The position numbers and the translations under genes were made by a program. Positions 812-16,504 of a stretch of 18,673 nucleotides of DNA are shown piece by piece. Under the pieces are notes generated by a model. That model did not search any database. It was given only the letters and a program-made list of their open reading frames with translations, and was not told the origin of the DNA. Position 1 is the stretch's first letter; each line of letters begins with the position of its first letter. The stretch is from contig JBHHXT010000091.1 of assembly GCA_046757165.1 (NCBI GenBank), positions 1 to 18,673 of the forward strand, in the 5' to 3' direction. This stretch comes from a bacterium. GTDB lineage: Bacteria; Zhuqueibacterota; Zhuqueibacteria; Oceanimicrobiales; Oceanimicrobiaceae.

Positions 812-1124
812 TCAGTGCTGCTGTGATTTGACGCTCTGCAGGAATTCGCCAATCGTGGCGTGATTCAGTTGCTTGTATTCCGGATGCGCATCCAGCCACT
901 CGTTCAAATGCTCTTCTGACCAAACGAGATTGTCGACCGCTCAGCCCCCGCCCTGCTGAATCCAGACGAACTCGGGACTCAGCGCAGCAATTTCACCCTT
1001 TTCAAGCGTCAGATGGATTCTTTTGCTGCGGGGGCGCCTGCTTAGCCAGCCGCTCCCGGGCAAACAAGAAAAGGGCCAAACAGGTCAAACCCAGAATCAA
1101 TAAGACCAAAGATTTTCTCTTCAT
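812..1124 (-). pseudogene. Frameshifted or internally deleted small exported protein with a MerB-like C-terminal segment and an in-frame TGA (candidate selenocysteine)
   Basis: AAGGAG SD, then ATG at 1124 encoding a signal/anchor peptide (MKRKSLVLLILGLTCLALFLFA); this frame stops at 1002-1004. The +1 frame from about 1030 reads SKRIHLTLEKGEIAALSPEFVWIQQGGG-TGA(941-943)-AVDNLVWSEEHLNEWLDAHPEYKQLNHATIGEFLQSVKSQQH-stop(812-814), which resembles the C-terminal half of MerB-like proteins. Confidence 0.55.
899..928 (-). promoter_or_regulatory. Candidate bacterial SECIS element
   Basis: Hand-folded CUCGU-[UUGG bulge]-UCAGA-loop AGAGCA-UUUGA-ACGAG. The apical loop starts 26 nt after the UGA at 941-943 and has G at loop position 2. 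Confidence 0.45.
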
Positions 1125-1271
1125 CCTGTTCTCCTTTTGGTTGCGTTCCGAACTGAGGGCCTGGCCGTGCTTCCTGCCCCGGTTGCCCAAATCACGCTCA
1201 CAACCGCCGGATTGGCGACTGTTCGTGGCGGTCTGTCAGACATCTCTTTATACCGTTTGATAAACTCAATC

Positions 1272-1312
1272 TTCCACGAAAAGTCATACGACTCATATGA
1301 GTTTTCATGGAA
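1272..1312. repeat. Imperfect inverted repeat (17-bp arms, 7-nt spacer) overlapping a perfect 12-bp palindrome
   Basis: TTCCACGAAAAGTCATA-CGACTCA-TATGAGTTTTCATGGAA with 2 arm mismatches. ACTCATATGAGT at 1291-1302. Confidence 0.7.
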
Positions 1313-1390
1313 AAGTGGTTAAGAAACTTGCCAACAGCAAGAAGAAAGTTGGCCGGGCCAAGCCCCGCATGCCCCACGCAAAGGCCTCTG

Positions 1391-2419
1391 TCAGAATTTG
1401 TAGTAATACGACAAGCGCGGCATGAAATCAGTATCCGGGCTGGCACCCAGGTTGTTCTCATCATAGAGAACCACTTCCACGTTGGGCATCAGGTGGACGT
1501 TCTTGTGCGGCCGGAAGTCGAGTCCCGCAAGCAAGAAAGTGGATTTCGCCGAGCTGTCAAAAGGAAGGTAAGAAATCTTTGCCCCATCAGGATTCGGATC
1601 GAACTGACGGTCGACCCTGACATAGGTCCAGGTTTTGCTGGAGAGTCTTGCCGCCGCGAAGATCGAGCCGATCTGGAGCTGCAAGTCATCGCCACCGGCA
1701 ACCTGGCGATTCTGATGTGCAATCTGAACGCCGATTCGGAAGGTTGCGGTCTCATATCCTGCAAAGCCCTGCAGCGTGTAGCGGTTGGTCTTGCCCGGTC
1801 TCTCCTCGAAATCGACATACCCTTCGACGATAAGGCCGCTGCCTGGCTTGCCGCGCAAGGCCAGCATCACTTTCTTGCCGTCGTTGTTTTCCGAGCCGTT
1901 GCTGCTGCCGTTACCCACCATCAAGTGATAGTTGAGGCGCTTCCCGGAATCCAGGCTGCCTTTAAGGGCGAGACCGAAGTCGCGAGATGAGCCAAACTTC
2001 TGTAAATCGAGTGCGGTTTTCTCAACCGCCCGGTAGCCCCAAAAGCTTTCAACAAAACCCCACGTGGGCGTGCCGGAAATGCCCACGTAGACGGTATGGC
2101 GGTCGTGCTTCCATTTCAGGTAGGCATCTTTTACAACCGGAGTCAATTTGTCCTTGCTGGCAAAGTCGCCGGCGCTGTTCATTTCGAAGCGCAGGCGAAT
2201 GGCGAACGCTTCGCTCAACCCTTTGTCGTAAGTCAAATATATCCGGCGCAGCCAAAAGCCGTTGGCATCTTCGATTTCTTTGTTATGATTGCCAGCCATG
2301 TAGTAGTAGTCGCCAAACATATATCCTTTGATGTTGCCCTGGTCCTGTCCAAAAAGCGCAGGTGCGAGCAGCAAGAACACCACGATTGCCTGTAGCTTCA
2401 TTTCGAGTTTGTTTCTCAT
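1391..2419 (-). CDS. Outer-membrane porin, probably phosphate-related (OprO/OprP-like)
   Basis: 342-aa ORF with a signal peptide, the N-terminal 'GFWLRRIYLTY...VKDAYLKW' pattern typical of this porin group, and a C-terminal Phe (YYYKF). Directly downstream of phoBR. Confidence 0.7.
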   Translation of the reverse strand: MRNKLEMKLQAIVVFLLLAPALFGQDQGNIKGYMFGDYYYMAGNHNKEIEDANGFWLRRIYLTYDKGLSEAFAIRLRFEMNSAGDFASKDKLTPVVKDAYLKWKHDRHTVYVGISGTPTWGFVESFWGYRAVEKTALDLQKFGSSRDFGLALKGSLDSGKRLNYHLMVGNGSSNGSENNDGKKVMLALRGKPGSGLIVEGYVDFEERPGKTNRYTLQGFAGYETATFRIGVQIAHQNRQVAGGDDLQLQIGSIFAAARLSSKTWTYVRVDRQFDPNPDGAKISYLPFDSSAKSTFLLAGLDFRPHKNVHLMPNVEVVLYDENNLGASPDTDFMPRLSYYYKF

Positions 2420-2518
2420 CTGATACTTTTCTCCTGTTTTTTTCCCCGATGGCTTTCAAACCACCACCAGAACTGAATAATTGCCCCATATTGAGCTTCA
2501 CGAGAATTGATTGGCCCG

Positions 2519-4309
2519 TCATTGAGGAACGGCTGTTCCTGCGCGGGGTAGGGTAAAGCTGATTTTTGTTCCTTTCCCGACCTCGCTTTCCAGCGAGATT
2601 TTCCCCCCGTGTCGCTGAATGATATGTTTGACGATCGCCAGGCCGAGCCCGGTTCCCCCCATGACCCTGGACCGGCCCTTGGCCACACGGTAGAATCGCT
2701 CGAAGACGCGAGGCTGATCGTCACCTGGGATGCCAATCCCCCGGTCTGCGACCTCGACCTTGACTTCTGCCGTTCGCACGCTGGCTGAAATGGATATCAC
2801 GTTGCCTTTGCCGCCATACTTGATGGCGTTGTCGATGAGGTTTTCCAGCACGGTTTCAACTTCCGTGGCTATCCCCAGCACCCGTGGAAGCGTCCCGGGA
2901 AGGTTGATCTGCAGAATAAATTGGTTCTGACTATCCAGATTCTTAAAGCTGTCAGCGACCTTGGTAATCGCTGCCGCTAAATCGATTTCTTCGGTGGGCG
3001 CGTCATCTTCGACCGTTTCCAATCTGGCGAGACGCAAGAGATCCTGCACGAGTTTCGACATCCGGTCTGTGTGCCGGAGGATGATCTCGAGAAAATCACC
3101 AGACGTGCCATTTTCCAAACCCCGATTCTCTAACAACGTTTCTGTGTATCCCTTGATGGCGGTGAGGGGAGTTCGAATCTCGTGAGAGACGTTGGCGACA
3201 AAATCCCGGCGGATTTTTTCCAACTGCTTGAGGCGCGTAATATCGTGAAAGACGACCACGGCACCAGATGACTTGTCTCCAGTGCTCAAGATTGAAATAT
3301 GTGCCTCCAGATTTTTCGGGACGGGCTCGGCCAATTCGATCGATTCCACGACATCTCTCTTTTCCAGGATCGCCAGCTCGATAGCTTGCAACAGCGGCGC
3401 ATTTGGCAGGGCCTCCTTGATGGGCTTATCAACAATGGTTTCGGACACGCCAAAAATGTCTTGAAAAGACTGATTGATCAGAAGTATCCGCCCATTTCGG
3501 TCTGTGACGGTGACGCCCTCGACCATACTGTTGAGGATCGCCTGCAACTGATCCCGCTCATGTGTGATTTGGTTGACGTACTTTTGCAGGTTCTCCGCCA
3601 TCAGGTCGAGCGCGGTTCCAAGGTCGGCCAGCTCGTCGTTGCTTTGTGAGCTCATTCTTGTGGAGAAGTCGCCTGTGGCAATTCTCTTGGCAACGTCAGA
3701 CATTGCGCTCAAACGCCGCGTCATGGACTTGGAAACGATAATACCGGTCACGATGATCAGGATGAAGCCGAGCGCGCTGGCAAGCCAGATAAGCCGGTGA
3801 ATCTGGGCGATAGAGTCTTCGATCTCGGAGACGGGAACGGCCACGCGCACGACCCTCACCGGGTTCTGGAGGGTGCCGATTGGCACGGCCAGGTAAACCA
3901 AATCCAAATCCACCGTAGTGCTGTGTCGCCGGCTTTTGCCGAACCCCAGAGCCAGAGCATCGAGAACCTCTGGTCGTGTGCTGTGGTCCTCCACCTGCGG
4001 CAAATCACCCAAATCGACATCGCTGTCTCCCAGGACAGTTCCCGCACGATCGATGAGGGTCAGTCGCATCCCCAAAGTGCGCCCCATGTCGTCCGCCAGG
4101 CGGTCCGCATCTTCGCGGGTCAAGGTTGCAAAATCGCTCGCCTCCACCATTTTTCTTGCCAGGTTGAGCTCGCGTTTCCAGCGGTTTTCGAACCGTGTTT
4201 CAAAGTACGCCTCCAGCCGCGAGCTCAGATACAGGACCATAAAAAGAATGACCGCTCCGCCGACGAGCAGATGCCCGGCCATCCACTTCCACCGAATGCT
4301 GAGCTTCAT
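2519..4309 (-). CDS. phoR: Phosphate regulon sensor histidine kinase
   Basis: Two TM segments, HAMP, PAS (LNSMVEGVTVTDRNGRI), H-box FVANVSHEIRTPLT, N-box ENLIDNAIKY, G-boxes (DRGIGI, FERFYRV, GTGLGLAIVKH). Overlaps the phoB stop (ATGA). Confidence 0.93.
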   Translation of the reverse strand: MKLSIRWKWMAGHLLVGGAVILFMVLYLSSRLEAYFETRFENRWKRELNLARKMVEASDFATLTREDADRLADDMGRTLGMRLTLIDRAGTVLGDSDVDLGDLPQVEDHSTRPEVLDALALGFGKSRRHSTTVDLDLVYLAVPIGTLQNPVRVVRVAVPVSEIEDSIAQIHRLIWLASALGFILIIVTGIIVSKSMTRRLSAMSDVAKRIATGDFSTRMSSQSNDELADLGTALDLMAENLQKYVNQITHERDQLQAILNSMVEGVTVTDRNGRILLINQSFQDIFGVSETIVDKPIKEALPNAPLLQAIELAILEKRDVVESIELAEPVPKNLEAHISILSTGDKSSGAVVVFHDITRLKQLEKIRRDFVANVSHEIRTPLTAIKGYTETLLENRGLENGTSGDFLEIILRHTDRMSKLVQDLLRLARLETVEDDAPTEEIDLAAAITKVADSFKNLDSQNQFILQINLPGTLPRVLGIATEVETVLENLIDNAIKYGGKGNVISISASVRTAEVKVEVADRGIGIPGDDQPRVFERFYRVAKGRSRVMGGTGLGLAIVKHIIQRHGGKISLESEVGKGTKISFTLPRAGTAVPQ

Positions 4310-4998
4310 GGGTTGTCCTCACGGATGCGATAGCCGACGCCGCGTACGGTTTCGATGCATTCGCCGGCAGCGCCGAGTTTGGAGCGCAGTCTTCGCATAT
4401 GCGTATCCACGGTTCGGGTGAACCCTGCGTAGTCATATCCCCACACGCTTTCCAACAGCATATCCCGTGTTTGTACCCGACCTTTCCGTTCAGCCAAAAT
4501 GAGCAAGAGTTTGAACTCGGTGCTGGTCAGCTCTACCGGCGTTTGGTCGACAGATACTTGATGCCGCGGAACATCGATGACGATGTTGTCCAGCTCGATG
4601 ACTTGTTTCGCTTCGTCCGCCGGCCTCACCCGCTTCAGGATGGCTTTGACGCGCAGCACGAGCTCGCGCGGACTAAACGGTTTGGTGACATAATCATCCG
4701 CCCCCAGCTCAAATCCCACCACGCGATCGATCTCTTCACTCCTGGCCGTTAGCATGATGATCGGAATGTGACGGCTTTTCTTATCTTGTTTGAGTATCTT
4801 GCACACTTCCGTACCGGAGAGACCCGGCAGCATCAGGTCCAAAATGATCAAATCCGGTGAGACTTGTTCGATAACGGCAAGCGCTTTATCGCCCGCATCG
4901 GCCTTGTGCATGCGATATCCGGCTTGCTCCAGATGATAAGCAACCAAATCGAGGATATCCGCCTCGTCCTCCACGACGACTATTTTTTCTTTTGACAT
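4306..4998 (-). CDS. phoB: OmpR/PhoB-family response regulator
   Basis: Receiver domain (VVEDE, LIILDLMLP, GADDYVTKPF) plus winged-helix domain (RTVDTHMRRLRSKL, IETVRGVGY). Located in a pst locus. Confidence 0.92.
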   Translation of the reverse strand: MSKEKIVVVEDEADILDLVAYHLEQAGYRMHKADAGDKALAVIEQVSPDLIILDLMLPGLSGTEVCKILKQDKKSRHIPIIMLTARSEEIDRVVGFELGADDYVTKPFSPRELVLRVKAILKRVRPADEAKQVIELDNIVIDVPRHQVSVDQTPVELTSTEFKLLLILAERKGRVQTRDMLLESVWGYDYAGFTRTVDTHMRRLRSKLGAAGECIETVRGVGYRIREDNP

Positions 4999-5041
4999 GG
5001 TTCAAACATAAAATTCTTGGCGGTAATGGTCACTAATTGTG

Positions 5042-5066
5042 CGTCACCAAACTGAGTTTGGCGACG
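5042..5066. repeat. REP-like palindrome
   Basis: CGTCACCAAACT-G-AGTTTGGCGACG: 12-bp arms with one mismatch that is a G-U pair on the minus strand. Intergenic, just after the remnant ORF. Confidence 0.6.
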
Positions 5067-5072
5067 AGGTCC

Positions 5073-5228
5073 CTATTCCTCGAGTTTTTCGCTAAGCTCC
5101 TTAATTTCTTGGAGAAGCACAGAGAGATTCGGACGAGTGAAACTCATCTCTGGCGCCAAGATGCGATGGTGTTTGATGTCCGGTGGGACATGCTTTCGGT
5201 GCTCATGTGTTCTATCAGTACTTAGCAT
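5073..5228 (-). pseudogene. C-terminal remnant of a probable DUF6516/TumE-like toxin-antitoxin protein
   Basis: Open frame MLSTDRTHEHRKHVPPDIKHHRILAPEMSFTRPNLSVLLQEIKELSEKLEE-TAG, below the ORF-track cutoff. It resembles the HPHHKH-type C-terminus I recall for DUF6516 proteins. An in-frame stop at 5256-5258 leaves no N-terminal part. Confidence 0.45.
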
Positions 5229-5327
5229 TGCACTGAATCGCATCAGGTCATTTGTTCAAAGTTAACAGACACTCCGGACAAAAGCAATTCTTTCGTTCCT
5301 TTCCACGGATTGGGATTCTGTAAAGAA

Positions 5328-6104
5328 TCAACCATACCGGCCTTCGATATAATCGGCTGTTTTGGGATTGCCGGGGGTAAGAAAGAGATCCTCGGTTCGC
5401 CTGTGCTCCAGGATTTCGCCGAGCAGCATGAAAATGCATTCGTGGCTTACCCGCCGGGCTTGCGCCATGTTGTGGGTTACAATCAGAATGGTGTACTTGC
5501 CAGCCAGAGTCAGCATCAGCTCTTCGACGGCATGCGTGGCCTCGGCGTCAAGGGCAGAGCACGGTTCGTCCATCAGGATGATGCGCGGTTTCAGCGGCAG
5601 GAGGCGTGCAATACACAATTTTTGCTGCTGCTCGAGCTGCAGGGTCGTCGCTTTCACTTTCAACTTGTCTTTCAGGTTTTCCCAGAGAAAAACCTCCTTT
5701 AAAGATTGTTCCACCATTTCGTCCAGTTCGGTTTTCTTATGGGCGGAGCGTTGCGAGTGGATTCGCAGACCGAAGACGATATTTTCGTAAACGGAGATCG
5801 GCAACGGATTAGGCCGTTGAAAAACCATGCCAACGGCTTTTCGCAGATCTGGCAGCGAAACATCCGCATCGTAGACATTCTTTCCCAGAATCTTGATTTC
5901 ACCGGTGGTGGTCACATTGCCATAGCGCTCGTTGACCCGGTTAAGAGATCGCAGCAAGGTGGTTTTGCCACACCCGGACGGTCCGATCAGTGCTGTGACC
6001 AGGCCGTCGACGACCTTCATGCTGACATTAGCCAACGCCTGAAACTCACCATACCAGAGGTTGAGATTGTCGGTTTCGATGCTGTATTTTGTCTCTTCGA
6101 TCAT
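5328..6104 (-). CDS. pstB: Phosphate ABC transporter ATPase, copy with a degenerate signature motif
   Basis: Walker A GPSGCGKTT, Q-loop MVFQRPNP, Walker B ILMDEPCSALD, H-loop VTHN, C-terminal YIEGRYG. The signature reads LQLEQQQK instead of LSGGQQQR. Confidence 0.92.
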   Translation of the reverse strand: MIEETKYSIETDNLNLWYGEFQALANVSMKVVDGLVTALIGPSGCGKTTLLRSLNRVNERYGNVTTTGEIKILGKNVYDADVSLPDLRKAVGMVFQRPNPLPISVYENIVFGLRIHSQRSAHKKTELDEMVEQSLKEVFLWENLKDKLKVKATTLQLEQQQKLCIARLLPLKPRIILMDEPCSALDAEATHAVEELMLTLAGKYTILIVTHNMAQARRVSHECIFMLLGEILEHRRTEDLFLTPGNPKTADYIEGRYG

Positions 6105-6868
6105 CCGAAGCTCCCATTCACGTAATCATAGGTCATGCTGTTTGCCGGAGAATTGGAAAAGATCACCTCGTTGCTACTGATTTCCACCAGGTCACCATTG
6201 AGAAAAAAGGCCGTTCTGTCGGCCAGCCTGCGCGCCTGTTGAACCAGGTTTGTCACCAGGAGGATGGTTACCTCCGAACGTAATTCCTTCAGGACGTCTT
6301 CGATTCGCATGGTGGTCACCGGATCCACGGCAATGGAAAACTCGTCCAGGCACAGGATTTCGGGCTGGTGGGAAAGCGCCCGGGCAATGGTCAAACGCTG
6401 CTGTTGCCCCCCGGAAAGCTTGCTGCCGAGACTTCCCAACCGGTCTTTTACTTCATCCCAGAGCGCCGCCTGTCTCAGACAGCGTTCGACCAGCTCATCC
6501 AATTCGGCGCGTTTGCGCAATCCTGCCGCACGCGGTGCAAAGGCGACATTGTCGTAAATAGACAGAGGCAGCCCCACCGGTAACGGGAAAACCATGCCGA
6601 TCTTCCGGCGCAATTCGTAGACATTTCTAACCTTCTTGATATCCTCGCCGTCGATCTTCACCGTGCCGTCAGCCCTGGCCTGCGGCACGAACTCGATCAT
6701 GCGGTTGATCACCTTCAACAGGGTGGTTTTCCCCGATTGCGCCGGCCCGATAACGGCAAGGATTTCGTTTTTGTAAACATCCAGGGACACGCCCTTCAGC
6801 GCCTCTCTGGCACCGTAACGGACCCTGAGATTCGAGATTTCTATTTTCTTGCTAGAACCTTGCATCAT
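6101..6868 (-). CDS. pstB: Phosphate ABC transporter ATPase, copy with degenerate Q- and H-loops
   Basis: Walker A GPAQSGKTT, intact LSGGQQQR, Walker B ILCLDEFSIAVDP, Q-loop MVFPLP, H-loop LVTNL, C-terminal YVNGSFG. Confidence 0.9.
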   Translation of the reverse strand: MMQGSSKKIEISNLRVRYGAREALKGVSLDVYKNEILAVIGPAQSGKTTLLKVINRMIEFVPQARADGTVKIDGEDIKKVRNVYELRRKIGMVFPLPVGLPLSIYDNVAFAPRAAGLRKRAELDELVERCLRQAALWDEVKDRLGSLGSKLSGGQQQRLTIARALSHQPEILCLDEFSIAVDPVTTMRIEDVLKELRSEVTILLVTNLVQQARRLADRTAFFLNGDLVEISSNEVIFSNSPANSMTYDYVNGSFG

Positions 6869-6886
6869 ACCTCATTTGTTCAACTG

Positions 6887-7831
6887 CTACCATTTCTTCC
6901 GGGAGCGTAGATAAACCCGCAGCACGATGGCCAGGGCATTGAAAAGCAAAACCGTGCCCAGGAGCACGACCGCAGTTCCATATGACAGGGCTTCCGGCAC
7001 GTTCGGAACCTGCGTGGAAATCGTAAAGAGGTGCATGGAGAGCGCCATGCACTGGTCGAGCACGCCGTATGCGAACAGATCGCCTTCGGGTATGGCTTTG
7101 AAGAAGACAGCGCCGGTAAACATGATCGGTGCGGTCTCCCCGGCTGCCCGGGAAACTTGCAGAATAATGCCGGTCAAAATCCCGCTAATGGAGTTGGGCA
7201 GGACGATACGCCGGATGGTTTGCCAGCGCGTGGCGCCTGTGTTCCAGCACGCTTCGCGAAAGGCGAAGGGGACGGCCGCCAGGGCTTCGGTGGTGCTGGC
7301 AATAATCACCGGCAAAGTCATGATCGCCAGCGTCAGCGAGGCCGCCAGGATTGAGCGGCCCATGCCCGCAAACAAGACAAATGCGCCCAGCCCGAACAGG
7401 GCATGCACGATGCTGGGCACGCCGGCCAAATTGATGACCGCCATATTGATGATCCTCGTCAACCAATTCTCGCGTGCGTACTCGTGCAGATAAACTGCGG
7501 CTAAGATGCCGATGGGAGCGGCAACCAGCAGAGAGATGCCGACAAGATAGAGCGTGCCTAGCAGCGGCGACCAAATCCCGCCGGCACGCATGCCATGCAC
7601 CGGATTGGAAAACAGAAAATCAAACGACAGGATTGGAAACGCCTTGTAAAAAAGATAACCGACAATCAACAGCAGCGGCAAGATCATCAGGGCTGTCATC
7701 GAGAAGAACACAGCCCGGGCGACCTGCTCGCTGAGCCTCTTTTTGCGAACCAGCGCCGTTTCGGTAAACAACGGCTGCGTGTGTATCTCGGGCTGCACGG
7801 TTCCGTGCCATATCAGTTCATGTGTTTTCAT
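6887..7831 (-). CDS. pstA: Phosphate ABC transporter permease
   Basis: GGIWSPLLGT, AVYLHEY, LAGVPSIVHALFG, an EAA-like loop (REACWNTGATRWQ) and RAAGETAP. Confidence 0.93.
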   Translation of the reverse strand: MKTHELIWHGTVQPEIHTQPLFTETALVRKKRLSEQVARAVFFSMTALMILPLLLIVGYLFYKAFPILSFDFLFSNPVHGMRAGGIWSPLLGTLYLVGISLLVAAPIGILAAVYLHEYARENWLTRIINMAVINLAGVPSIVHALFGLGAFVLFAGMGRSILAASLTLAIMTLPVIIASTTEALAAVPFAFREACWNTGATRWQTIRRIVLPNSISGILTGIILQVSRAAGETAPIMFTGAVFFKAIPEGDLFAYGVLDQCMALSMHLFTISTQVPNVPEALSYGTAVVLLGTVLLFNALAIVLRVYLRSRKKW

Positions 7832-8721
7832 CTGTTACGAACCCCCTTGACGATTAAGTCGGCGACCAGATTCACCACAAACGTGATCGTAAACAACAAG
7901 ACACCGAGGATGAACAAGACTTGATAGTGGTCCGACTGGACCGGCGTCTCACCCAGCTCCGCAGCGATGGTGGCGGTCAACGTTCGGACAGAGTCCAGGG
8001 GGCTGCCCGGGATTTGCACCGCATGGCCGGTCGCCATCAGCACGGCCATGGTTTCGCCAACGGCGCGCGCGACGCCGAGCAAAACGGCGGCCAACAGGCC
8101 GTTCTTGCCCGCGGGCAGGAGCACCCGGTAGACCACCTGCCAGCGCGTTGCGCCGAGCGCCTCAGCCGCCTCGCGGTAGGAATCCGGAACCGCCTTGAGC
8201 GCGTCCTCGCCGATGGAAACGATGATGGGAACGCTCATCAGCGCCAGAATGATGCCGCCGTTGAGCACAGTGAGACCGATAGGAGCATCGAATAAGTCAA
8301 TAATCACACCGTTCATCACCGTCAAACCGATGAACCCCCAGACAACAGAGGGCACCGCAGCCAGGAGCTCGATCACGATCTTGAACGCCTCTTTCAGCCT
8401 GGCGCCACAAAACTCAGAGACGTAGATGGCAGCGCCCAGACCAAACGGGACGGCAATGGCCATCGCCAGGGCGGTCACGCTGAAGGTGCCGGCCAGCAAA
8501 GCCAGCACACCGTAGCGTTTGTGACTCACCGACGTGGGATACCATTCCGGGCTGGTGAAGAATTCCTTCATATCGAAACTGTTGAACAGAAAGTCTGCCC
8601 CTTCCCGAAAGACGAAGAAGAAAATACCGAAGACGAACAGGATCGCACTGATTCCGCAAAACCGAATGGTCCACTCGATGACGGGTTCGGTCAGCCTTTC
8701 CAGCCTGTGTCGAATCTGCAT
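7828..8721 (-). CDS. pstC: Phosphate ABC transporter permease
   Basis: ELLAAVPSVVWG, EAA motif (REAAEALGATRWQ), RAVGETMAV, TLTATIAAELGE. Confidence 0.94.
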   Translation of the reverse strand: MQIRHRLERLTEPVIEWTIRFCGISAILFVFGIFFFVFREGADFLFNSFDMKEFFTSPEWYPTSVSHKRYGVLALLAGTFSVTALAMAIAVPFGLGAAIYVSEFCGARLKEAFKIVIELLAAVPSVVWGFIGLTVMNGVIIDLFDAPIGLTVLNGGIILALMSVPIIVSIGEDALKAVPDSYREAAEALGATRWQVVYRVLLPAGKNGLLAAVLLGVARAVGETMAVLMATGHAVQIPGSPLDSVRTLTATIAAELGETPVQSDHYQVLFILGVLLFTITFVVNLVADLIVKGVRNR

Positions 8722-9681
8722 TTATTCTGACCGCTCGGCTGAAGTGTTCCTGGACAAGCGTTGCTCTTTCGGCACCGGCACATAGCCGCTGGCCACGACA
8801 ATTTTCTGACCCGCGTCGGAAAGAATCCAGTCGATATATTGTTTCTGCTTGCCAGTGGGTTCGCCGAGTGAATAAACATAGAGCGGGCGAGCGATGGGAT
8901 AGGAGTTGTTGAGCGTATTCTCGACGCTTGGGGCGTAATACGAGTCGCCGGCTTGTTTGGCTATCTTTAGCATTTTGACTTGCTCGGTGGCATAGCCCAT
9001 ACCGCTGTAGCCGATGGCGCAGGGCGTGGTTTGCACCAGCTCCACCACATCCTTTGAGCCGTGCAAATCTCTCGACCCCAATTTGAAATCCCGCGCCTTG
9101 CCCAGCAGCGCCTCACGAAAATAGAAGTAGGTACCGGAATTGGACTGCCGGCTGACCCGGATGATTTCATCTTCAGAGCAAGCCGGATGGTCGATGCCGA
9201 GCTGGGACCACCGGGTGATTTTGCCGCCTTCGCCATAAATCCCAGCAAGCTGCTCAATGGTGATCTCACTGAGCGGGTTGTCTTTGTGAACGTAAACCGC
9301 AAGGGCGTCATAGCCAACAATGAATCTTGTCGGTTCTTTGCCCGTGTTCTGTTTTGCTCTTTCGATCTCTTCCGGCTTCATTTGACGGCTGCAATTGGCG
9401 ATATCAACCGTGCCGTTGATCAACGCGGCAATGCCGGTTCCTGAGCCCCCGCCGGAGACTTCGACTGAGACCGAGCCATCTACAGTGGCGTAGGCTTCGG
9501 CCCAGGCTTGCGCCAGATTCACCATGGTGTCCGAACCGGAGTTCTGGATGACGGTTTTCGTGGTGCCACCACCGGAATCCCCGCTGTCGCCTCTCTTGCA
9601 TCCAACTTGAAGCAGACTAACAAAGAGCACAAGCATGGCGCTGATGGACAATTTTCTACCAGGATGAGTGTGTTGAAACAT
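8722..9681 (-). CDS. pstS: Phosphate-binding lipoprotein
   Basis: Start reassigned to ATG 9681 (GAGGT SD; avoids overlap with phoU). Lipobox LQVG-C, GSDTM, GGGSGTG, SRQSNSGT, YPIARPLY. Confidence 0.93.
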   Translation of the reverse strand: MFQHTHPGRKLSISAMLVLFVSLLQVGCKRGDSGDSGGGTTKTVIQNSGSDTMVNLAQAWAEAYATVDGSVSVEVSGGGSGTGIAALINGTVDIANCSRQMKPEEIERAKQNTGKEPTRFIVGYDALAVYVHKDNPLSEITIEQLAGIYGEGGKITRWSQLGIDHPACSEDEIIRVSRQSNSGTYFYFREALLGKARDFKLGSRDLHGSKDVVELVQTTPCAIGYSGMGYATEQVKMLKIAKQAGDSYYAPSVENTLNNSYPIARPLYVYSLGEPTGKQKQYIDWILSDAGQKIVVASGYVPVPKEQRLSRNTSAERSE

Positions 9682-9703
9682 GACTTTACCTCGCTTTCTT
9701 GAG

Positions 9704-10795
9704 TTAATTCCCGAGAATCGCCTTGACGAGTTCCCGAATGTGAGTATTAAGGTATTGATACGTTTTTTCGTAAGCCGCTTGAAGTTCTTCTTCTGACCCG
9801 GACAGCTCTGACGGATCCTCAACCTCCCACCGGATGCTGACCGTTTTTGTTGGTGGAGGTGGAAAGGCTTCTTCCGCTTCTTTGCAAAGCGATATGATGA
9901 CATCATAGTGCTCCGGGACCACAATTTGTTTGAAGGATTTTGAAGTTTGTGCCGAGATGTCGATGCCCTTGTGAGCCAGAAAGCTCACTGTCTTATGGTC
10001 CACAGACCTGGGAGCGACGCCCGCACTGTTGAACAGCACCCCTTCGATTCCCAACCCATTGCCGATGCCCTCGGCCATCTGCCCGCGGCATGAATCGCCC
10101 TGGTCCACGAAAAGGACGCGAAAGATGTCTTTGCCCTGATGCTTGATGTTCTCGCCAGTACACATGTACAGGACTTCTTCGCAGATATTGCACGCCTGGT
10201 CTGCCACCCGCTCGAAGCGGCTGGCGATAATCATGAAAGGCGGCAGCGCCTCCGAAGGAAGTTTGTGGGCATTGCGCAGTCGAAGCAAATCGTCATGAAT
10301 GGCGTAGCGACTCTCGTCGACTCCGGCCTCCATCTCCATGGTAGACTTCGCCAACTCCGCATCCTGGTCGACAAACGATTGAATGGCATTGCGCAGCATC
10401 GGGATGGAGAGCTGGGCAATTTCAACGACTTTCGGATACGATGGCGCCGGGTCGATAGAATCGATGGCCAGGAATTGTCGGGCGATGCTTTCAGCGTAAT
10501 CGCCAATCCGCTCCAATTCGTTGTTGATCTTTATCACCGCGTACACAAAGCGCAAGTGGCCTGCTGCCGGTTGCTGCCGGACAAGAAACTCGAGGCACAG
10601 CCGGTCCAGCTCCTTTTCCAGCTCATCGATATGTCGGTCTCGCAGGACGACCGAATACGCCAATTGGCGTTTCCCATCAGTCAGCACCTGGACGCTCGTG
10701 TTCAACGCACTTTCGACCAGACCTGCCATCTCGACCACTTTCGTGCGAATTCGCTCCATGTCCTGGTGCAGACTCTCTTCTAAACGTGATTCCAT
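9704..10795 (-). CDS. phoU: PhoU fused to a C-terminal ArsC/LMW-PTP-like domain with a degenerate P-loop
   Basis: Two PhoU repeats (QQPAAGHLR, ELERIGDYA, FERVADQACNICE), then VLFVDQGDSCRGQMAEG, SAGV, GIDIS, WEVEDP. Confidence 0.9.
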   Translation of the reverse strand: MESRLEESLHQDMERIRTKVVEMAGLVESALNTSVQVLTDGKRQLAYSVVLRDRHIDELEKELDRLCLEFLVRQQPAAGHLRFVYAVIKINNELERIGDYAESIARQFLAIDSIDPAPSYPKVVEIAQLSIPMLRNAIQSFVDQDAELAKSTMEMEAGVDESRYAIHDDLLRLRNAHKLPSEALPPFMIIASRFERVADQACNICEEVLYMCTGENIKHQGKDIFRVLFVDQGDSCRGQMAEGIGNGLGIEGVLFNSAGVAPRSVDHKTVSFLAHKGIDISAQTSKSFKQIVVPEHYDVIISLCKEAEEAFPPPPTKTVSIRWEVEDPSELSGSEEELQAAYEKTYQYLNTHIRELVKAILGN

Positions 10796-11077: not shown

Positions 11078-14000
11078 TTATTCGTTCCGAAGACTAAGTT
11101 GCCGCCCACGCCAGACCGTATAGATTGCCGGAATGACCAGTAGCGTCAAAATAGTCGACGTGACCAGCCCTCCGACCATCGGCGCTGCAATTCGCTTCAT
11201 GACGTCCGCACCGGCGCCCGTGCTCCACATGATAGGCAACAGCCCGAGGATCGTGGTGCTGACTGTCATCATCTTCGGGCGCACCCGTTGCACTGCGCCA
11301 CCGGTGACGGCTTCCCGCAATTGTTGCAATGATTTCATGCGGCCTTGTCGCTGGTAGCGGTCGAAATATTCATCCAGATAAACAATCATCACCACACCCG
11401 TTTCAGCCGCCACGCCGGCGAGCGCGATGATCCCCACCCAAACGGCGACGCTTGTGTTGAACCCTAAGAGCCACAGAAGCCAAACCGCTCCGACCACAGA
11501 AAATGGCACCGACAGCAGCACAATCAGTGTTTTGGGAACAGACCTGAAGTTGAAATAGAGCAGCAGAAAAATAAAGACAATCGTTACTGGAACCACCAAC
11601 TTCAACTTCTCCCGCACTCGCTGCAGGTATTTGTACTGACCCGCCCAGGCAAGCGTGTACCCCGGTGGGATATCCACATTGTCCAGAATGACCTGCTGCG
11701 CCTGGCGCACATATTTGCCGTAGTCTTTCTCGACCACATCCACAAACACGAAGCCGACCTTCGAACCGTTCTCGTTGCGAATCATGGGTGGCCCGGTGGT
11801 TGGAAATATGTCAGCCAACTGGGCAATGGGGACCCTGGCGCCGGAAGAAGTCGGCACCAGAATGCGTTTCAGTTTATCCAGATCATCGCGCAGCTCTCGT
11901 GGATAGCGTACGTTGACTGGATAGCGCTCTTTGCCCTCGATAGTTTGTGTAATGTTCATGCCGCCGATAGCGGTTTGGATGATGTCCTGAACGTCTCCAA
12001 CGGTCAAGCCGTACCGGGCTGCTTGCTGGCGGTTGATCTCGAAATCAATGAAATACCCACCGCTGGTTCTTTCTGCAAATGCGCTGCGTGTGCCCGGGAA
12101 ATCTTGCAGCGCCTGTTCGATGTCCACAGCAATGCGTTCGATCTCCCTGAGGTCCGGGCCGAAAACTTTGATTCCCAAATTGCTGCGAATGCCGGTGGTC
12201 AGCATCTCTGTCCGCGTTTGAATAGGCATCCACCAGATGTTTGCCATGCCCGGAAACCTGAGTTTTTGGTCCATTTCAGCGACGATTTTATCCCAGGTCA
12301 TGCCCGGCCGCCACTCATCTTTTGGCTTGAGCGTAATGGTGGTTTCGACCATGCTGAGCGGAGCCGGATCCGTGGCGGTGCGCGAACGGCCGATTTTGCC
12401 GAAGACGCGCTCCACTTCAGGGAAGGTGGCCAGAATCTTATCCTGGATATGAAGAATCTTTTTTGCTTCCGAGGCCGGCATGCCCGGAATAGACGTCGGC
12501 ATGTAGAGGATGGAGCCTTCGTTGAGCGGTGGCATGAACTCGGTGCCGAGCATTATGAAAATGGGAACCGTTGCGACAAGAATGAGCACGGCCGCCACAG
12601 TGACCCACTTGCGGAACCGCAGGACAAAATCGACCAGAGGGCGATATGTCCACATCAGAAAGCGGCTGATGGGATTCTTTTCTTCCGGGCGAAGCTTCCC
12701 TTTTACAAAGATGGGAATCAGCGCCGGCGCCAGGGTCACGGCCAGAATCGCAGCGAAAAACATGGAGAACGTCTTGGTGTAAGCCAGCGGTTTGAACAAA
12801 CGTCCCTCTTGCCCCTCCAGAGTAAAGATGGGTAGAAACGAAACCGTGATTACCAGCAGCGAAAAAAAGATCGGTTTACCGACTTCTTGCAAGGATTTGA
12901 TGATCACCGTCAGGCGGTTTTCTTTCCGTCCGGTCTGTTGCCATTGTTCGAGTGCTTTGTGCGAATTCTCCACCAGCACGATGGCCGCATCAACCATTAC
13001 TCCGATGGCGATGGCAATTCCACCCAGAGACATAATGTTGGCGTTGAGTCCCATGAATTTCATGGGAATAAAAGCAATCGCCACCGCGATGGGCAAAGTA
13101 AGGATGGCAACTGAAGCGCTGCGTAGATGAAACAGAAACAGGATGATGACAAGACTGACGATGATCATCTCTTCGGTCACCTTTTCCCGCAAAGTACGAA
13201 TGGCCCTCGAGATGAGATCCGAGCGGTCGTAAGTCGTGACAATCTGCATACCCTGGGGCAGAGAGGGTTTGACCTGTTCGATTTTCTCCTTCACACCCTC
13301 GATAACCCTGAGCGCATTTTCCCCGTAGCGCATCACCACAATGCCGCCGACGACCTCACCTTTGCCATCGAGCTCGGCGACGCCGCGGCGCATGTCCGGG
13401 CCCAGGTGCACATGGGCCACATTGCGAATGAAAACAGGCGTGCCGCTGCCGTCAGTCGCCAGCGCTATTTGCTCGATGTCCTGCACCGATTGGATGTAGC
13501 CTCTCCCGCGCAGCATGAATTCGGTCGATGCCATTTCAATGACCCGCCCGCCGACGTCGTTGTTGTTTTCCCGCACTGCCTGAATGACGCGTTTCAGGGG
13601 GATGTTGTAGGCCACAAGTTTGTTGGGATCCACATCGATTTGGTATTGTTTAACAAACCCGCCAACCGAGGCCACCTCGGCGACACCCGGCACCGCTTCC
13701 AGCCAGACCTTCAGATGCCAGTCCTGAAAGGACCGCAGGTCGGCTAAATTCCAGCGCCCGCTCGTGTCTACCAGAGCATATTCAAACACCCAGCCCACGC
13801 CCGTGGCATCCGGGCCAAGGGTGGGGGTTGCGCCTGCAGGGAGCCGGGCTTCGATTTCGTTCATATATTCCAATATCCGGCTGCGTGCCCAGTACATGTC
13901 CGTGCCGTCTTCAAAGATCACATAAACAAACGAAAGCCCGAAGAAGGACTGTCCGCGGACGAACTGCACTTTGGGCGCAGCCAAAAGACTGGTGACAATA

Positions 14001-14203
14001 GCATAGGTGATCTGATCCTCGATGATATCCGGGCTGCGGCCAGGCCATTCGGTAAAGACGATCACCTGCGCGTCCGACAGGTCCGGAATGGCGTCCAGGG
14101 GGGTGTGTGACAAGGCCCAGACGCCCCAGATTGTGGCAATGCCGACCAGCAAAAAAACCAGGAGTCTATTTTTTACGCTGGCCGCAATGAGTTTTTCTAT
14201 CAT
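11078..14203 (-). CDS. cusA: Heavy-metal efflux RND permease, CusA/SilA type (Cu+/Ag+)
   Basis: Start reassigned to ATG 14203 (GGAG SD). PLDAIPDLSD, GPDATGVGWV, MSLGGIAIAIGVMVDAA, EFMPPLNEG, TDPAPLSM, MPIQTRTEML, RVRPKMMT. Confidence 0.95.
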   Translation of the reverse strand: MIEKLIAASVKNRLLVFLLVGIATIWGVWALSHTPLDAIPDLSDAQVIVFTEWPGRSPDIIEDQITYAIVTSLLAAPKVQFVRGQSFFGLSFVYVIFEDGTDMYWARSRILEYMNEIEARLPAGATPTLGPDATGVGWVFEYALVDTSGRWNLADLRSFQDWHLKVWLEAVPGVAEVASVGGFVKQYQIDVDPNKLVAYNIPLKRVIQAVRENNNDVGGRVIEMASTEFMLRGRGYIQSVQDIEQIALATDGSGTPVFIRNVAHVHLGPDMRRGVAELDGKGEVVGGIVVMRYGENALRVIEGVKEKIEQVKPSLPQGMQIVTTYDRSDLISRAIRTLREKVTEEMIIVSLVIILFLFHLRSASVAILTLPIAVAIAFIPMKFMGLNANIMSLGGIAIAIGVMVDAAIVLVENSHKALEQWQQTGRKENRLTVIIKSLQEVGKPIFFSLLVITVSFLPIFTLEGQEGRLFKPLAYTKTFSMFFAAILAVTLAPALIPIFVKGKLRPEEKNPISRFLMWTYRPLVDFVLRFRKWVTVAAVLILVATVPIFIMLGTEFMPPLNEGSILYMPTSIPGMPASEAKKILHIQDKILATFPEVERVFGKIGRSRTATDPAPLSMVETTITLKPKDEWRPGMTWDKIVAEMDQKLRFPGMANIWWMPIQTRTEMLTTGIRSNLGIKVFGPDLREIERIAVDIEQALQDFPGTRSAFAERTSGGYFIDFEINRQQAARYGLTVGDVQDIIQTAIGGMNITQTIEGKERYPVNVRYPRELRDDLDKLKRILVPTSSGARVPIAQLADIFPTTGPPMIRNENGSKVGFVFVDVVEKDYGKYVRQAQQVILDNVDIPPGYTLAWAGQYKYLQRVREKLKLVVPVTIVFIFLLLYFNFRSVPKTLIVLLSVPFSVVGAVWLLWLLGFNTSVAVWVGIIALAGVAAETGVVMIVYLDEYFDRYQRQGRMKSLQQLREAVTGGAVQRVRPKMMTVSTTILGLLPIMWSTGAGADVMKRIAAPMVGGLVTSTILTLLVIPAIYTVWRGRQLSLRNE

Positions 14204-14225
14204 GCTAAATTGCTCCAGATTGTTC

Positions 14226-14254
14226 TTGAAAAAACTGTGCAAATGAATTATCTT
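14226..14254 (+). promoter_or_regulatory. Putative sigma70 promoter of the TA pair
   Basis: TTGAAA-17 nt-TATCTT, followed by a GGAGGT SD and ATG at 14277. Confidence 0.6.
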
Positions 14255-14276
14255 TATGAAAAATGGAGGTGTTGAA

Positions 14277-14513
14277 ATGAATTCTCAGATTTCTCCGCAG
14301 AAAGTATACGATGCGCTCAAATCACTGTCGAACGATAGTCTGCAGAAAGTTTGGGAATACATTGAATCCATCCGAGCCCCCCAAAAGAATCGAGACCTTT
14401 CTAATGCCATCAAACTCGGTGGTATCCTGGCTGAATATGAGGTTGACATTTCAGAATATGATATTGTCGAAGCCCGAAAAGAAATGTGGCACAAGCTTGG
14501 AAAAACCGATTGA
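14277..14513 (+). CDS. Putative antitoxin (DUF2281-like) of a PIN/VapC pair
   Basis: 78-aa ORF with a strong SD. Pattern 'LKSLSNDSLQKVWEYIESI...LGGIL...ISEYDIVEARKEMW'. TGATG overlap with the PIN gene. Confidence 0.65.
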   Translation: MNSQISPQKVYDALKSLSNDSLQKVWEYIESIRAPQKNRDLSNAIKLGGILAEYEVDISEYDIVEARKEMWHKLGKTD

Positions 14514-14868
14514 TGCAAGAAACGTCACTGACACGCATTCTTTGCTCTGGTATCTCTTGCGAAGTAAGAGACTTTCCCCAAAAGCAGCGGCCATCTTCAG
14601 TGAGATCGATGAAGGCAAAGGACAAATTCATATTCCTACAATTGTATTGGTCGAAATCGTTTACTTGATGGAAAAAGCGAAGATTCCAAAACACGCAATC
14701 AAGACCGTAATCAATATGCTGGATACATCACCTTCCAACTATTCACTCTCTCCGATCACACTGCAAACTATTCGTGCACTACAATCAATCTCCAGAAAGA
14801 AAATTCTCGACATGCCCGATCGAATTATTTCCGCCACCGCTGCAAATATCGCCACGGTAATTTGGTAG
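14513..14868 (+). pseudogene. vapC: PIN-domain (VapC-like) toxin, frameshifted near the start and C-terminally shortened
   Basis: PIN motifs TDTHSLLWY, IVLVEI, DMPDRIISATA are in a different frame from the coupled ATG at 14513 (ATG CAA GAA AC GTC ACT GAC; one base short). The final LITxD segment is absent. Confidence 0.7.
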
Positions 14869-14878
14869 TGGCTCTTTT

Positions 14879-16504
14879 CTACATGGTCTGTAAGACTCCC
14901 TGCACATGTGCCTCGGCATCGATGAGAAAGTTTCCTGATTTCACGACCACTTCTCCGGCTGCCAGGCCTTCCACAACCGCATAAGCCCGTCCGACTTTCA
15001 CCCCCAGTTTGATCTCTCTGGGCTCGAAGCGGCCGTTGCCGCGGTCCACAAACACCAATTGCCGCACGCCTGTATTCAGCACGGCGGTTTCGGGAATCGT
15101 CAATTGCTCTCCCTCGTTCACTGCGATCTCGACCTCCGCGTACATGTCCGGTTTGAGCTTCAGGTCTGGATTTGGAAATACAAGACGGATTTGGGCGGTG
15201 CGTGTGCGGGCCTGAAGCGTTGGGTAAATGTAATCCACGCGTCCGGTGTAATTTGCCCCGGGGTCATACGACAACCGGATGCTCGCCTCTTGCCCCACTT
15301 TAATAAATGGCAGCTCATATTCGTAGATGTCTGCCAGCACCCAGACCTCGGAGAGATCAGCGATCGTGTACAAATCCGTGCCCTCTTTGGCGTGACGGCC
15401 TTGCAGGGTGTTTTTTTCAAGCACGTAGCCGCTTATTGGCGAGTAAAAAGTCAGCTTCAACCGGGGAGCGCCGGCTTTTTCTATCTGCGTCATTTGCTTT
15501 TCAGAAATACCCCACAGCAGCAACCGCTCCCGGACGGATTTCAGCAAGCTGTTTTTGCGGTTATCACCGTTCCCGCTGCTCGAGTTTGTTGTCCGTCTCT
15601 GCTGGGAAGATCCCATGAGCGCCAGGAGATACTCTTCCTGGGTTGAGACGAGCTCCGGGCTGTAAATATCGAACAGCGGCTGCCCCTGTGTTACCAGCTG
15701 GCCGGTGTAATTCACATATAACTTCTCAATCCAGCCGGAGAATTTCAGATTGACGGCAGCGATTTTCCTTTCGTTAAAAGTGACATGGCCGACAGTGCGG
15801 ATGGTTTTAGCGACAGGCCGCAATTTCACCGTGTCGCGCTGTACGCCAATAAGCTGCTGCTGGTACAACGGGATATTTACGGTGCGCACTTGTTTGTCTT
15901 TGGCGCCGGTTTGCGGTCCTGCACCTGCCTGATACACCGGCACCAAATCCATGGCGCAGATAGGGCATGTGCCTGGCTTCTTCACCTTAACCGAAGGGTG
16001 CATGGTGCAGGTGTAGTAATCGACTTCCGCTGGCCCCAAAGCGCCGCCCTCAGCCGAGGCTGACTTTACCCCTTTTGTCCCCGGGGTCACTTGCCACTGA
16101 GTGACGGCCAAAACGGTTGAACCCTCAACCACTTCCACCTTGACCTCCCAGGGGAACATGCCGCCAGCGCCTAAATCGATTTGGGCTTCATATAATCCGT
16201 TTTCAACGTGTCGTGCTTCTGTATCATTTGCCATGGCCTGCATGCCGGCCATAGCAGGCATGGAATAATGAACGTGTACGGTCGCGCTCGTAACAGGTCT
16301 ACCGGCGGCATTCTTTACTCTTACCTTGAAAGTATTCAAGCCGGCGGCCGGCGGATCAGGTGACACGGTAAGCGCAATTGTGTGATCACCGGCTTTTTGG
16401 AAAGCCTCTTCCACGTCGCCGCAGCCGTTGAAAATCAGCAAAGCGCTTATCAAAAGCAAAGCGTCAAACAATCCGGACAGGTGAGAAGAAAATTCTGGTT
16501 TCAT
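14879..16504 (-). CDS. cusB: CusB-like RND periplasmic adaptor with N-terminal YtkA/FixH-like and heavy-metal-binding domains
   Basis: AAGGAG SD, lipobox-like IFNG-C, Ig-like segment with HYSMPAMAGMQAM, YTCTMHP...CPICAMDL, GWIEKLYV, IYSPELVSTQEEYL, LKPDMY, GNFLIDAE. Confidence 0.9.
   Translation of the reverse strand: MKPEFSSHLSGLFDALLLISALLIFNGCGDVEEAFQKAGDHTIALTVSPDPPAAGLNTFKVRVKNAAGRPVTSATVHVHYSMPAMAGMQAMANDTEARHVENGLYEAQIDLGAGGMFPWEVKVEVVEGSTVLAVTQWQVTPGTKGVKSASAEGGALGPAEVDYYTCTMHPSVKVKKPGTCPICAMDLVPVYQAGAGPQTGAKDKQVRTVNIPLYQQQLIGVQRDTVKLRPVAKTIRTVGHVTFNERKIAAVNLKFSGWIEKLYVNYTGQLVTQGQPLFDIYSPELVSTQEEYLLALMGSSQQRRTTNSSSGNGDNRKNSLLKSVRERLLLWGISEKQMTQIEKAGAPRLKLTFYSPISGYVLEKNTLQGRHAKEGTDLYTIADLSEVWVLADIYEYELPFIKVGQEASIRLSYDPGANYTGRVDYIYPTLQARTRTAQIRLVFPNPDLKLKPDMYAEVEIAVNEGEQLTIPETAVLNTGVRQLVFVDRGNGRFEPREIKLGVKVGRAYAVVEGLAAGEVVVKSGNFLIDAEAHVQGVLQTM

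Follow-up and report, generated by a model that had tools for sequence, protein, structure and literature searches.

The window, that is, the whole stretch of 18,673 nt of DNA that was analysed, carries on its minus strand (positions 1124-812) the relic of a gene whose intact relatives encode MerB-like, probably exported proteins with an in-frame TGA at both positions that correspond to the catalytic cysteines of MerB. Each UGA is almost certainly read as selenocysteine (Sec) by SelB through a SECIS element of its own, as judged from conserved sequence and covarying RNA stems, and a soft metal or organometal is tentatively proposed as the substrate of the intact proteins. The copy in the window itself is a pseudogene, of value as a pointer to the family.

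Layout of the relic

An earlier note, made from the letters of the window, had described a strong Shine-Dalgarno sequence and an ATG at 1124 that start a signal or anchor peptide, joined out of frame to a MerB-like segment with one in-frame TGA. The first part of this description was borne out. ATG 1124 opens a 40-codon ORF with a hydrophobic N-terminus on the minus strand, preceded by AAGGAG at 1136-1131 and closed by TGA 1004-1002. The parts of the relic are as follows.

1131-1136, minus strand: Shine-Dalgarno sequence AAGGAG, separated from the ATG by 6 nt (read from the sequence)
1035-1124, minus strand: codons 1-30 of the relic, a predicted signal peptide that matches the family's own N-terminus (67% identity)
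1028-1034, minus strand: deletion junction, with a net 566 nt gone relative to the intact genes and the frame shifted (DNA alignment)
1002-1034, minus strand: out-of-frame tail of the 40-codon ORF, ending at TGA 1004-1002 (sequence)
815-1027, minus strand: the last 71 codons of the MerB-like core, stranded behind the junction (65-76% identical to the intact relatives)
941-943, minus strand: in-frame TGA, the second Sec site, aligned to MerB Cys159 (alignment, conserved TGA)
911-928, minus strand: decayed SECIS upper stem-loop with its GGUC loop at 921-918, containing one mismatch and one G-U pair
812-814, minus strand: terminal stop TGA, with a TAG 3 nt later (sequence)

The homologous 5' region aligns with the DNA of two relatives, G001 and G018, from about position 1137, and the relatives stop at the matching place with TGA, TAA or TAG. 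A hydrophobicity heuristic of 2.99 and three basic residues mark the N-terminus of the relic as a predicted signal peptide, which is 67% identical over 30 residues to the N-terminus of the G001 protein (P0002).

The +1 frame reads S-K-R-I-H-L...Q-G-G-G, then TGA 943-941, then A-V-D-N-L-V-W-S-E-E-H..., and stops at TGA 814-812. In a six-frame search, this read-through segment was found in 4 of 60 related genomes at 65-76% identity with the TGA kept, so it is more than a chance reading, and the earlier note was right that the frame is protein-like on both sides of the TGA. The stranded 71 codons have no convincing start of their own. Taken alone, the segment resembles the Pfam MerB model weakly (E 0.093; 13.1 bits, below the cut-off of 27). 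A word-index protein search with the 72-aa segment returned no homologue, NCBIfam gave no match and a PDB sequence search gave a chance match only. An Rfam search of the window and a plasmid search were likewise without a match, and no remnants of the family's neighbour genes were found beside the relic.

Deletion and decay of the window copy

In the four relatives that hold the segment, it forms the end of a gene of 290-293 codons with a signal-peptide-like start. DNA alignment with the loci L016, L024 and L027 places a single gap of net 566 nt at the junction 1034-1028, across which the frame shifts. On this alignment the relic is not a chimera: a single gene of about 292 codons begins with the predicted signal peptide and finishes with the MerB-like tail. 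The proposed join to a foreign signal peptide thus falls, since the peptide is the same gene's N-terminus split off by the deletion, and the earlier note's other suggestion, that the segment is a relic, holds. An origin of the signal peptide in an upstream TlpA gene was also considered and was ruled out by the alignment of the intact genes. The deletion removed the helical domain, the winged helix, the first TGA/Sec codon, the Asp, the first SECIS hairpin and the CxxC motif with its Cys117-equivalent. The missing middle was sought elsewhere in the window's genome, which is 99.98% complete, and was not found.

The junction is crossed by contigs of all four run assemblies, at a depth of 7-27 and without an indel, a joint or a loose end. 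The runs come from one hydrothermal vent metagenome study, possibly the source of this very DNA, and do not sample an independent population. This common source, together with the metagenomic origin of the DNA, is what an assembly artefact would have in its favour; since four separately assembled runs cross the junction, and no flanking repeat was found beside it, a mis-assembled deletion is scarcely credible. The same junction in four assemblies marks the window copy as a pseudogene. In the same runs (X1-X4), other contigs match only the TGA-SECIS stretch (window 873-946) at 90-95% and then diverge, which suggests further family members in co-occurring vent organisms.

With the net 566-nt deletion and frameshift, the window copy is certainly incomplete as read from the alignment. 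It is very probably unable to perform the proposed enzyme function, because half of the core is gone, the SECIS is eroding and no TlpA partner was found in the genome. The tail differs from G001 at 34 third positions and 5 second positions; as the differences fall mostly at third positions, the break in the gene is probably recent. Comparison with the relatives indicates that decay is under way. The SECIS of the window has an internal mismatch and a G-U pair, a pattern seen in 0 of 26 intact-type loci, and one of these changes also turns an otherwise invariant Phe into Val. The folding energy of the stem-loop is -0.2 kcal/mol in the window vs -6.7 kcal/mol in the intact form. A tree of 68 columns is mostly unresolved and places the relic beside G001 and G018 with modest support (82/78).

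It is very improbable that the window copy still yields a working mini-selenoprotein, whether by +1 slippage at the C run of the junction or by initiation at an internal start. The strong Shine-Dalgarno sequence and signal peptide are kept, the tail frame is open with the third- over second-position excess expected of purifying selection, the genome has selA, selB and tRNA-Sec, and a CCC-C run can slip in bacteria. Such a product would, however, be without the first Sec, the Asp and several core strands, and would depend on a destabilised SECIS next to an altered invariant Phe. The short form was seen at no other locus, copies broken by other lesions (L019, L035, L036, L050) indicate that loss of the gene recurs, and a recent break accounts for the divergence pattern.

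The intact family and its two TGA sites

Besides the window, 33 loci were examined. The 26 that cover both sites, representing 21 distinct C-terminal protein sequences, carry TGA at both MerB catalytic Cys positions (96 and 159) without exception, and TAA or TAG occurs at neither site in any of them. The search for homologues that the earlier note had proposed thus found the TGA kept. Its single selenocysteine stands at the second site, and the count is corrected to two, both at catalytic Cys positions. The two Sec codons lie 54-59 residues apart, and the Asp99-equivalent is invariant among the loci that cover both sites, including clades that are 30% identical. The intact proteins share one architecture of signal peptide, helical domain, winged helix and MerB core.

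Several loci hold damaged copies. L019 (in genome G167), one of the 26, has a frameshift upstream of site 1, beside a transposase-like ORF. Among the remaining seven loci, four are cut by contig ends, L035 (at 1598) and L036 have a single fused TGA after an in-frame deletion between two similar, near-identical UGA-SECIS stretches, which leaves one Sec, and L050 (G273) has lost both Sec sites to a deletion. Stops also occur inside the TlpA-like gene at L035 and L038. Loss of the family gene thus recurs, and having two such similar SECIS stretches in one gene may favour recombination, or collapse during assembly.

Two protein searches yielded at least 139 homologue clusters among the matches listed, a lower bound on the size of the family; one of the searches had 17 more matches beyond its listing. 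No Cys/Cys form was present among them. Of the 139, as many as 132 break off at precisely the residue that precedes site 1. Another carries Cys at site 1 and stops immediately ahead of site 2, P0017 is read through with Trp in both places, probably owing to the gene caller's choice of code, and five are partial or broken. The identity of the stop codon is known only for those homologues whose DNA was retrieved. The profiles used for the genome counts and for part of the homologue listing covered the N-terminal ~190 positions. The family was found in 7 of 167 genomes of the window's phylum and in 7 of 401 genomes sampled from the phylum of G167 (Acidobacteria), and homologue records bear the names Caldithrix sp., Calditrichaeota and Acidobacteria.

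A second clade of about 30% identity has Acidobacteria among its named members, and both TGAs are kept in L037, its one locus with DNA across both sites. About half of the listed second-clade entries have an extra N-terminal domain of ~105 residues. This domain (P0088, P0099, P0127 and related entries) lies between the signal peptide and the helical domain, begins D-P-L-T/S-G-T-W-K-G-D-W-G-P and has no match in Pfam.

The earlier note had proposed export. A signal-peptide test based on charge and hydrophobicity was positive for 125 of the 139 homologues, 7 of these with a lipobox-like motif, and for none of the 3 Cys-type MerB controls. Truncated starts account for most of the homologues that fail it. 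Export via the signal peptide is thus probable on the predicted N-termini, with some members as putative lipoproteins.

SECIS elements and probable decoding of the UGA codons

Downstream of each TGA, at a spacing of 19-20 nt, stands a 4-nt loop, GGUC (in one case GUUC), closed by a stem of 6-7 bp. The test set consisted of 25 stem-loops, 11 of them distinct, with both sites pooled and the window included. In this set 96% of stem cells are paired and two-sided changes occur at 6 of 7 pairs. The covariation score of 0.77 was reached in 0 of 500 shuffles, and slid partners scored 0.09-0.50; as the sequences are related and the sites pooled, the shuffle counts are inflated and serve as support rather than as probabilities. 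The hairpins fit the bSECIS consensus model of PMC13188914. A SECIS after the TGA of the window had been proposed before and stands, in damaged form: the conserved element, at 911-928, is a stem of 7 bp whose GGUC loop is spaced 19 nt from the TGA. The hairpin then named, 899-928, does not: it is the minimum-energy fold of the mutated copy, with a z of -1.58 and 14 of 200 shuffles as good.

The gene selA was present in 13 of 14 carriers of the family gene. It was over the cut-off in 129/167 and 161/201 background genomes (about 78-80%; the 201 include G191, flagged unpublished), so its co-occurrence discriminates weakly. A scan of the window's genome for a TGA followed by a GGUY hairpin gave 136 matches, mostly chance. 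In the intact family, the conserved in-frame UGA aligns to Cys and the coding sequence is conserved on both sides of it.

It is extremely unlikely that the TGAs are true stops, or Trp or Cys codons, and the family a set of split genes or fragments. The database entry P0017, with its two Trp, would fit such a reading. The TGAs nevertheless align to catalytic Cys at both sites, one homologue has Cys at site 1, a covarying SECIS follows each TGA by 19-20 nt, and neither TAA nor TAG takes the place of TGA in the 26 loci. Elsewhere in the window TGA serves as an ordinary stop.

Fold and active-site mapping

The MerB likeness that had been proposed for the segment was recovered at full length. All four intact proteins tested pass the cut-off of the Pfam MerB model (PF03243, 27 bits) with 33-41 bits, and the L037 protein reaches 29.9 bits; the profile similarity thus belongs to the intact proteins and not to the relic taken alone. 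The family profile matches MerB2 (5C17) with an E of 3.5e-7. In this alignment the first U corresponds to the Cys of W-C, the Asp to Ser99 of MerB2, and the second U to the Cys after G-G-T, so that the TGA of the window falls, as had been suggested, at a catalytic Cys position, the second in 5C17. The Cys-type MerB encoded in the window's genome gives the same mapping at a lower probability (68.8%).

An AlphaFold2 model was computed for the mature protein with Cys in place of Sec, from a 48-row alignment, and had a pLDDT of 89.6 and a pTM of 0.87. All 11 Foldseek matches to it at E<=1e-3 are MerB or MerB2, the best with an E of 3.8e-8, at low global TM-scores of 0.35-0.38. Comparison by VIA gave a Z of 9.0 and 8.9 against MerB structures, with an rmsd of 2.1-2.5 over about 113 residues; next in rank came generic winged helices (residues 64-144) and then NosL (Z 6.1, rmsd 4.2). 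The only ESM Atlas matches were under 0.9, to generic winged-helix clusters.

Cys96, Asp99 and Cys159 are the residues described as essential in MerB (PMC10114901, PMC8261052). The family keeps these triad positions as TGA/Asp/TGA, not Cys/Asp/Cys, which supports a putative site that works like that of canonical MerB rather than literal membership; the canonical models NF033555 and NF009710 give 21-27 bits vs cut-offs of 200 and 193. The CxxC motif, which maps to the structural Cys117, is variable (CAHC, CAHG, CSHC) and absent in L037. MerB and MerB2 have a far longer loop ahead of the second site than the family does, from which the substrate pocket is expected to differ.

Gene neighbourhood

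Of 33 loci, 31 have a TlpA-like CxxC gene upstream of the family gene, and the two misses have less than 170 nt of upstream DNA. Counted by distance, 22 of 24 loci had a TlpA/ResA-like gene no more than about 1.6 kb upstream, as did 9 of 9 loci examined in addition. The gene scores below the NCBIfam cut-offs for both TlpA and ResA and is called TlpA-like only. The best TlpA-like match in the window's genome is 31% identical and lies on another contig.

Neighbours were scanned as selected ORFs, 35 of 134 in NCBIfam. Metal or mercury genes are near the family gene in 5 of 13 loci examined, two of which (G342 and G320) look closely related; among the selected ORFs of the other 8 of 13 loci none was seen. 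In G342, G320 and G188 a Cys-type merB-like gene adjoins the family gene or lies within about 3 kb. MerR-family and CopZ-N-terminal genes are present in G320 and G188 as well, and MerT is matched weakly in G188. CopZ/HMA genes and a heavy-metal ATPase are nearby in G015, and CzcAB-like genes in L031. No merA was present among the scanned neighbour ORFs, no nos gene in the subset scanned and no Sao family among the 35 ORFs compared with NCBIfam. Genome-wide, four carriers of the intact gene, all incomplete genomes, gave one with MerA over the cut-off, and in the window's genome MerA stayed below it.

Scans confirmed a second redoxin-family gene near L024, L056, L058 and L061, and several loci have ECF sigma/zf-HC2 anti-sigma genes (scanned in L056) or BlaI/M56 regulators upstream.

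Two recurrent neighbours belong to no known family: a protein of ~245 aa with a signal-peptide-like start (L016:2134-2865, L017, L024, L054) and a membrane protein of ~190 aa with a Cys-rich C-terminal part (L016:5132-5710, L018, L054). Elsewhere in the window's genome, contig C425 (L007) holds a cluster of HMA, zf_CopZ/2Fe-2S and PF13557 barrel genes, among them a merB-like gene of the Cys type that scores above the Pfam cut-off.

Proposed function and alternatives

The intact family is tentatively read as an exported two-selenocysteine MerB-like enzyme that binds or cleaves a soft metal or organometal and whose site is reset by TlpA. Sec196, Sec250 and Asp199 (G001 numbering) would form the Cys96/Asp99/Cys159 site of MerB; the two selenolates would clamp a soft metal or an organometal such as R-Hg, and the Asp would protonate the carbon leaving group, as in MerB. 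The exported TlpA-like dithiol encoded alongside would either reduce the diselenide or take the metal off, and the released metal would pass to HMA, MerT or efflux proteins where these are present. A TlpA-like dithiol would be needed for the reset because there is no MerA outside the cytoplasm and Se-metal and Se-Se bonds are very stable. The more specific proposal of an extracytoplasmic, MerA-independent organomercury or organometal lyase, with both thiolates replaced by selenolates and a dedicated TlpA-like dithiol to recharge it, is rather doubtful. The steps that lead from the sequence to the identity of the site are observed or strongly implied, and the substrate and the turnover are putative.

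Several points weigh against a MerB-like mechanism. Metal genes accompany the family gene in only 5 of 13 loci examined, MerA is over the cut-off in only one of the four carriers, the short loop before the second site points to a different substrate pocket, and Hg-Se bonds may be too stable for turnover. The strict linkage to TlpA fits a purely redox enzyme equally well.

Such an enzyme, a periplasmic oxidoreductase without a metal substrate, would cycle its Sec pair between selenols and diselenide with the TlpA-like partner as the electron source, and would act on peroxide, sulfoxide, polysulfide or polyselenide, or on oxidised envelope proteins. The TlpA-like gene (31 of 33 loci) is far more constant than the metal genes, as this reading predicts; the second redoxin-family gene at four loci and the ECF sigma/anti-sigma or BlaI/M56 regulators upstream of several point the same way, and most prokaryotic selenoproteins are described as redox enzymes (PMC13188914). 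It is nonetheless the less expected function, and we regard it as rather unlikely: the Asp99-equivalent, whose known role is in metal ligation and protonation, is invariant over clades that are 30% identical, the whole geometry of the MerB site is kept, and merB-like and MerR-family genes stand beside some loci.

NosL offers a further model, in which the intact protein would hold Cu(I), Ag(I) or Hg(II) in the envelope as a metallochaperone or sponge, without catalysis, and TlpA would only keep the selenols reduced. NosL is described as an exported lipoprotein structurally homologous to MerB (PMC8457098), it is matched by VIA, MerB D99S is reported to bind copper (PMC10114901), and CopZ, P-type ATPase and CzcAB genes adjoin some loci. 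The family, however, keeps Asp and not Ser at this position, MerB stands well above NosL in both fold and sequence searches, and the subset of neighbours scanned held no nos gene. A NosL-like role is quite improbable.

If the lyase reading is true, selenium-based enzymatic demethylation of methylmercury, or metal capture, would take place in vent, sediment and soil bacteria, by a route invisible to merB surveys because gene callers cut the gene at the first UGA.

Comparison with known systems

MerB (PF03243; E. coli R831 MerB, 3F0O/3F2G; Bacillus megaterium MerB2, 5C17) and the family have the winged helix and lyase core in common, all three triad positions 96/99/159 are filled (U/D/U in the family), a Cys117-equivalent is present in the family's main clade, and the G-G-x before the second site matches MerB2. 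In contrast to MerB, the family has Sec for both Cys, a signal peptide, an extra N-terminal helical domain of ~60 residues, a further domain of ~105 residues in many second-clade members and a short loop before the second site. It is linked to a TlpA-like gene, whereas MerB is cytoplasmic and paired with MerA in the mer operon.

SaoL (NF040728) is the family's best NCBIfam match; it too is MerB-like, has Sec at the Cys159-equivalent and is truncated at the UGA in databases. It is described as having one Sec, in a CU motif, and Cys at position 96 (bioRxiv 10.1101/2022.07.06.499078), and as a cytosolic protein of ~213 aa from a nine-gene ABC-transporter SAO locus of anaerobes (Haft and Gwadz). 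The family differs in its two Sec (xW-U-xxD and GGG-U), its predicted export and its length of ~290 aa or more. The link to SaoL that the earlier note had drawn was not sustained, as all four intact proteins tested reach 28.8-32.5 bits vs the NF040728 cut-off of 140 and L037 gives no match.

NosL (7OG7) is likewise an exported protein with a MerB-related core; its structural match to the family is weak (Z 6.1, rmsd 4.2), and the MerB triad is kept in the family. The UxxU metal-binding family (NF041115), MbdU (NF045648) and other rows with 2-3 Sec in the table of PMC13188914 have two Sec per chain and a proposed role in metal binding. The Sec of the present family differ from these in lying 54-59 residues apart, each with a SECIS, and in being predicted to meet in a MerB-type site.

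Table 1 of PMC13188914 (119 families, 2026) has SaoL, with 1 Sec, as its sole MerB-like entry, and PMC9312934 lists SaoL too. NCBIfam 20.0 has no model whose cut-off the intact proteins pass, and the literature searched, which was mostly open-access, yielded no account of a MerB-like protein that is exported or has two Sec. BSepDB (PMC13326102) was compared apart from its family table, and Haft and Tolstoy 2025 through the table of the review. Within these sources, a family of exported double-Sec MerB-fold proteins with a TlpA-like partner is apparently uncatalogued. Of the 139 listed clusters, 132 are recorded as truncated proteins and have a Pfam match in only one case, and the named homologue entries carry 'hypothetical' or 'DNA-binding regulator'.

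MerB is described as the one well-characterised enzyme that breaks the C-Hg bond, with its origin and ancestral function as open questions (PMC10114901). The widespread family would be a natural experiment on the effect of selenium on MerB chemistry, in which both Cys are changed to Sec, the Asp is kept, and the protein is predicted to be extracytoplasmic, with a thioredoxin-like partner.

Other features of the window

At the end of the contig, which cuts it, an ORF at 18206-18673 (minus strand) encodes a heavy-metal-associated domain that reads G-M-T-TGA-S-L-TGA-A-F-G. The two TGAs (18664-18662 and 18655-18653) sit exactly at the CxxC of an HMA homologue, and the ORF is likely, from this alignment, to encode a UxxU selenoprotein. 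It has below-cut-off matches to CopZ, UxxU and MerP models, and the hairpin after the TGAs has a z of -2.1 and a loop that does not start with G. The ORF precedes an NHL-repeat gene; G015 has the same HMA-NHL order upstream of its TlpA and double-Sec genes.

Between the stop of the phosphate porin gene and the relic, a long, nearly perfect hairpin at 1263-1322 (minus strand) has a folding energy of -23.4 kcal/mol and a z of -5.6, with 0 of 200 shuffles as good. It has no other copy in the window's genome or the family loci and no Rfam match, and is possibly a regulator site or an RNA element.

Positions 1391-10795 (minus strand) hold a complete-looking phosphate uptake cluster (PhoU-like, PstS/C/A/B/B, PhoB/PhoR-like and a phosphate-selective porin). 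Its genes were named on the basis of their ORF sequences, and for the porin and the binding protein Pfam supports the name. A CusA/CusB-like efflux pair, whose CusB has YtkA and heavy-metal-binding domains, occupies 11078-16504 (minus strand), and its two genes, cusA and cusB, are separated by a small toxin-antitoxin-like pair with a PIN domain at 14256-14868 (plus strand).
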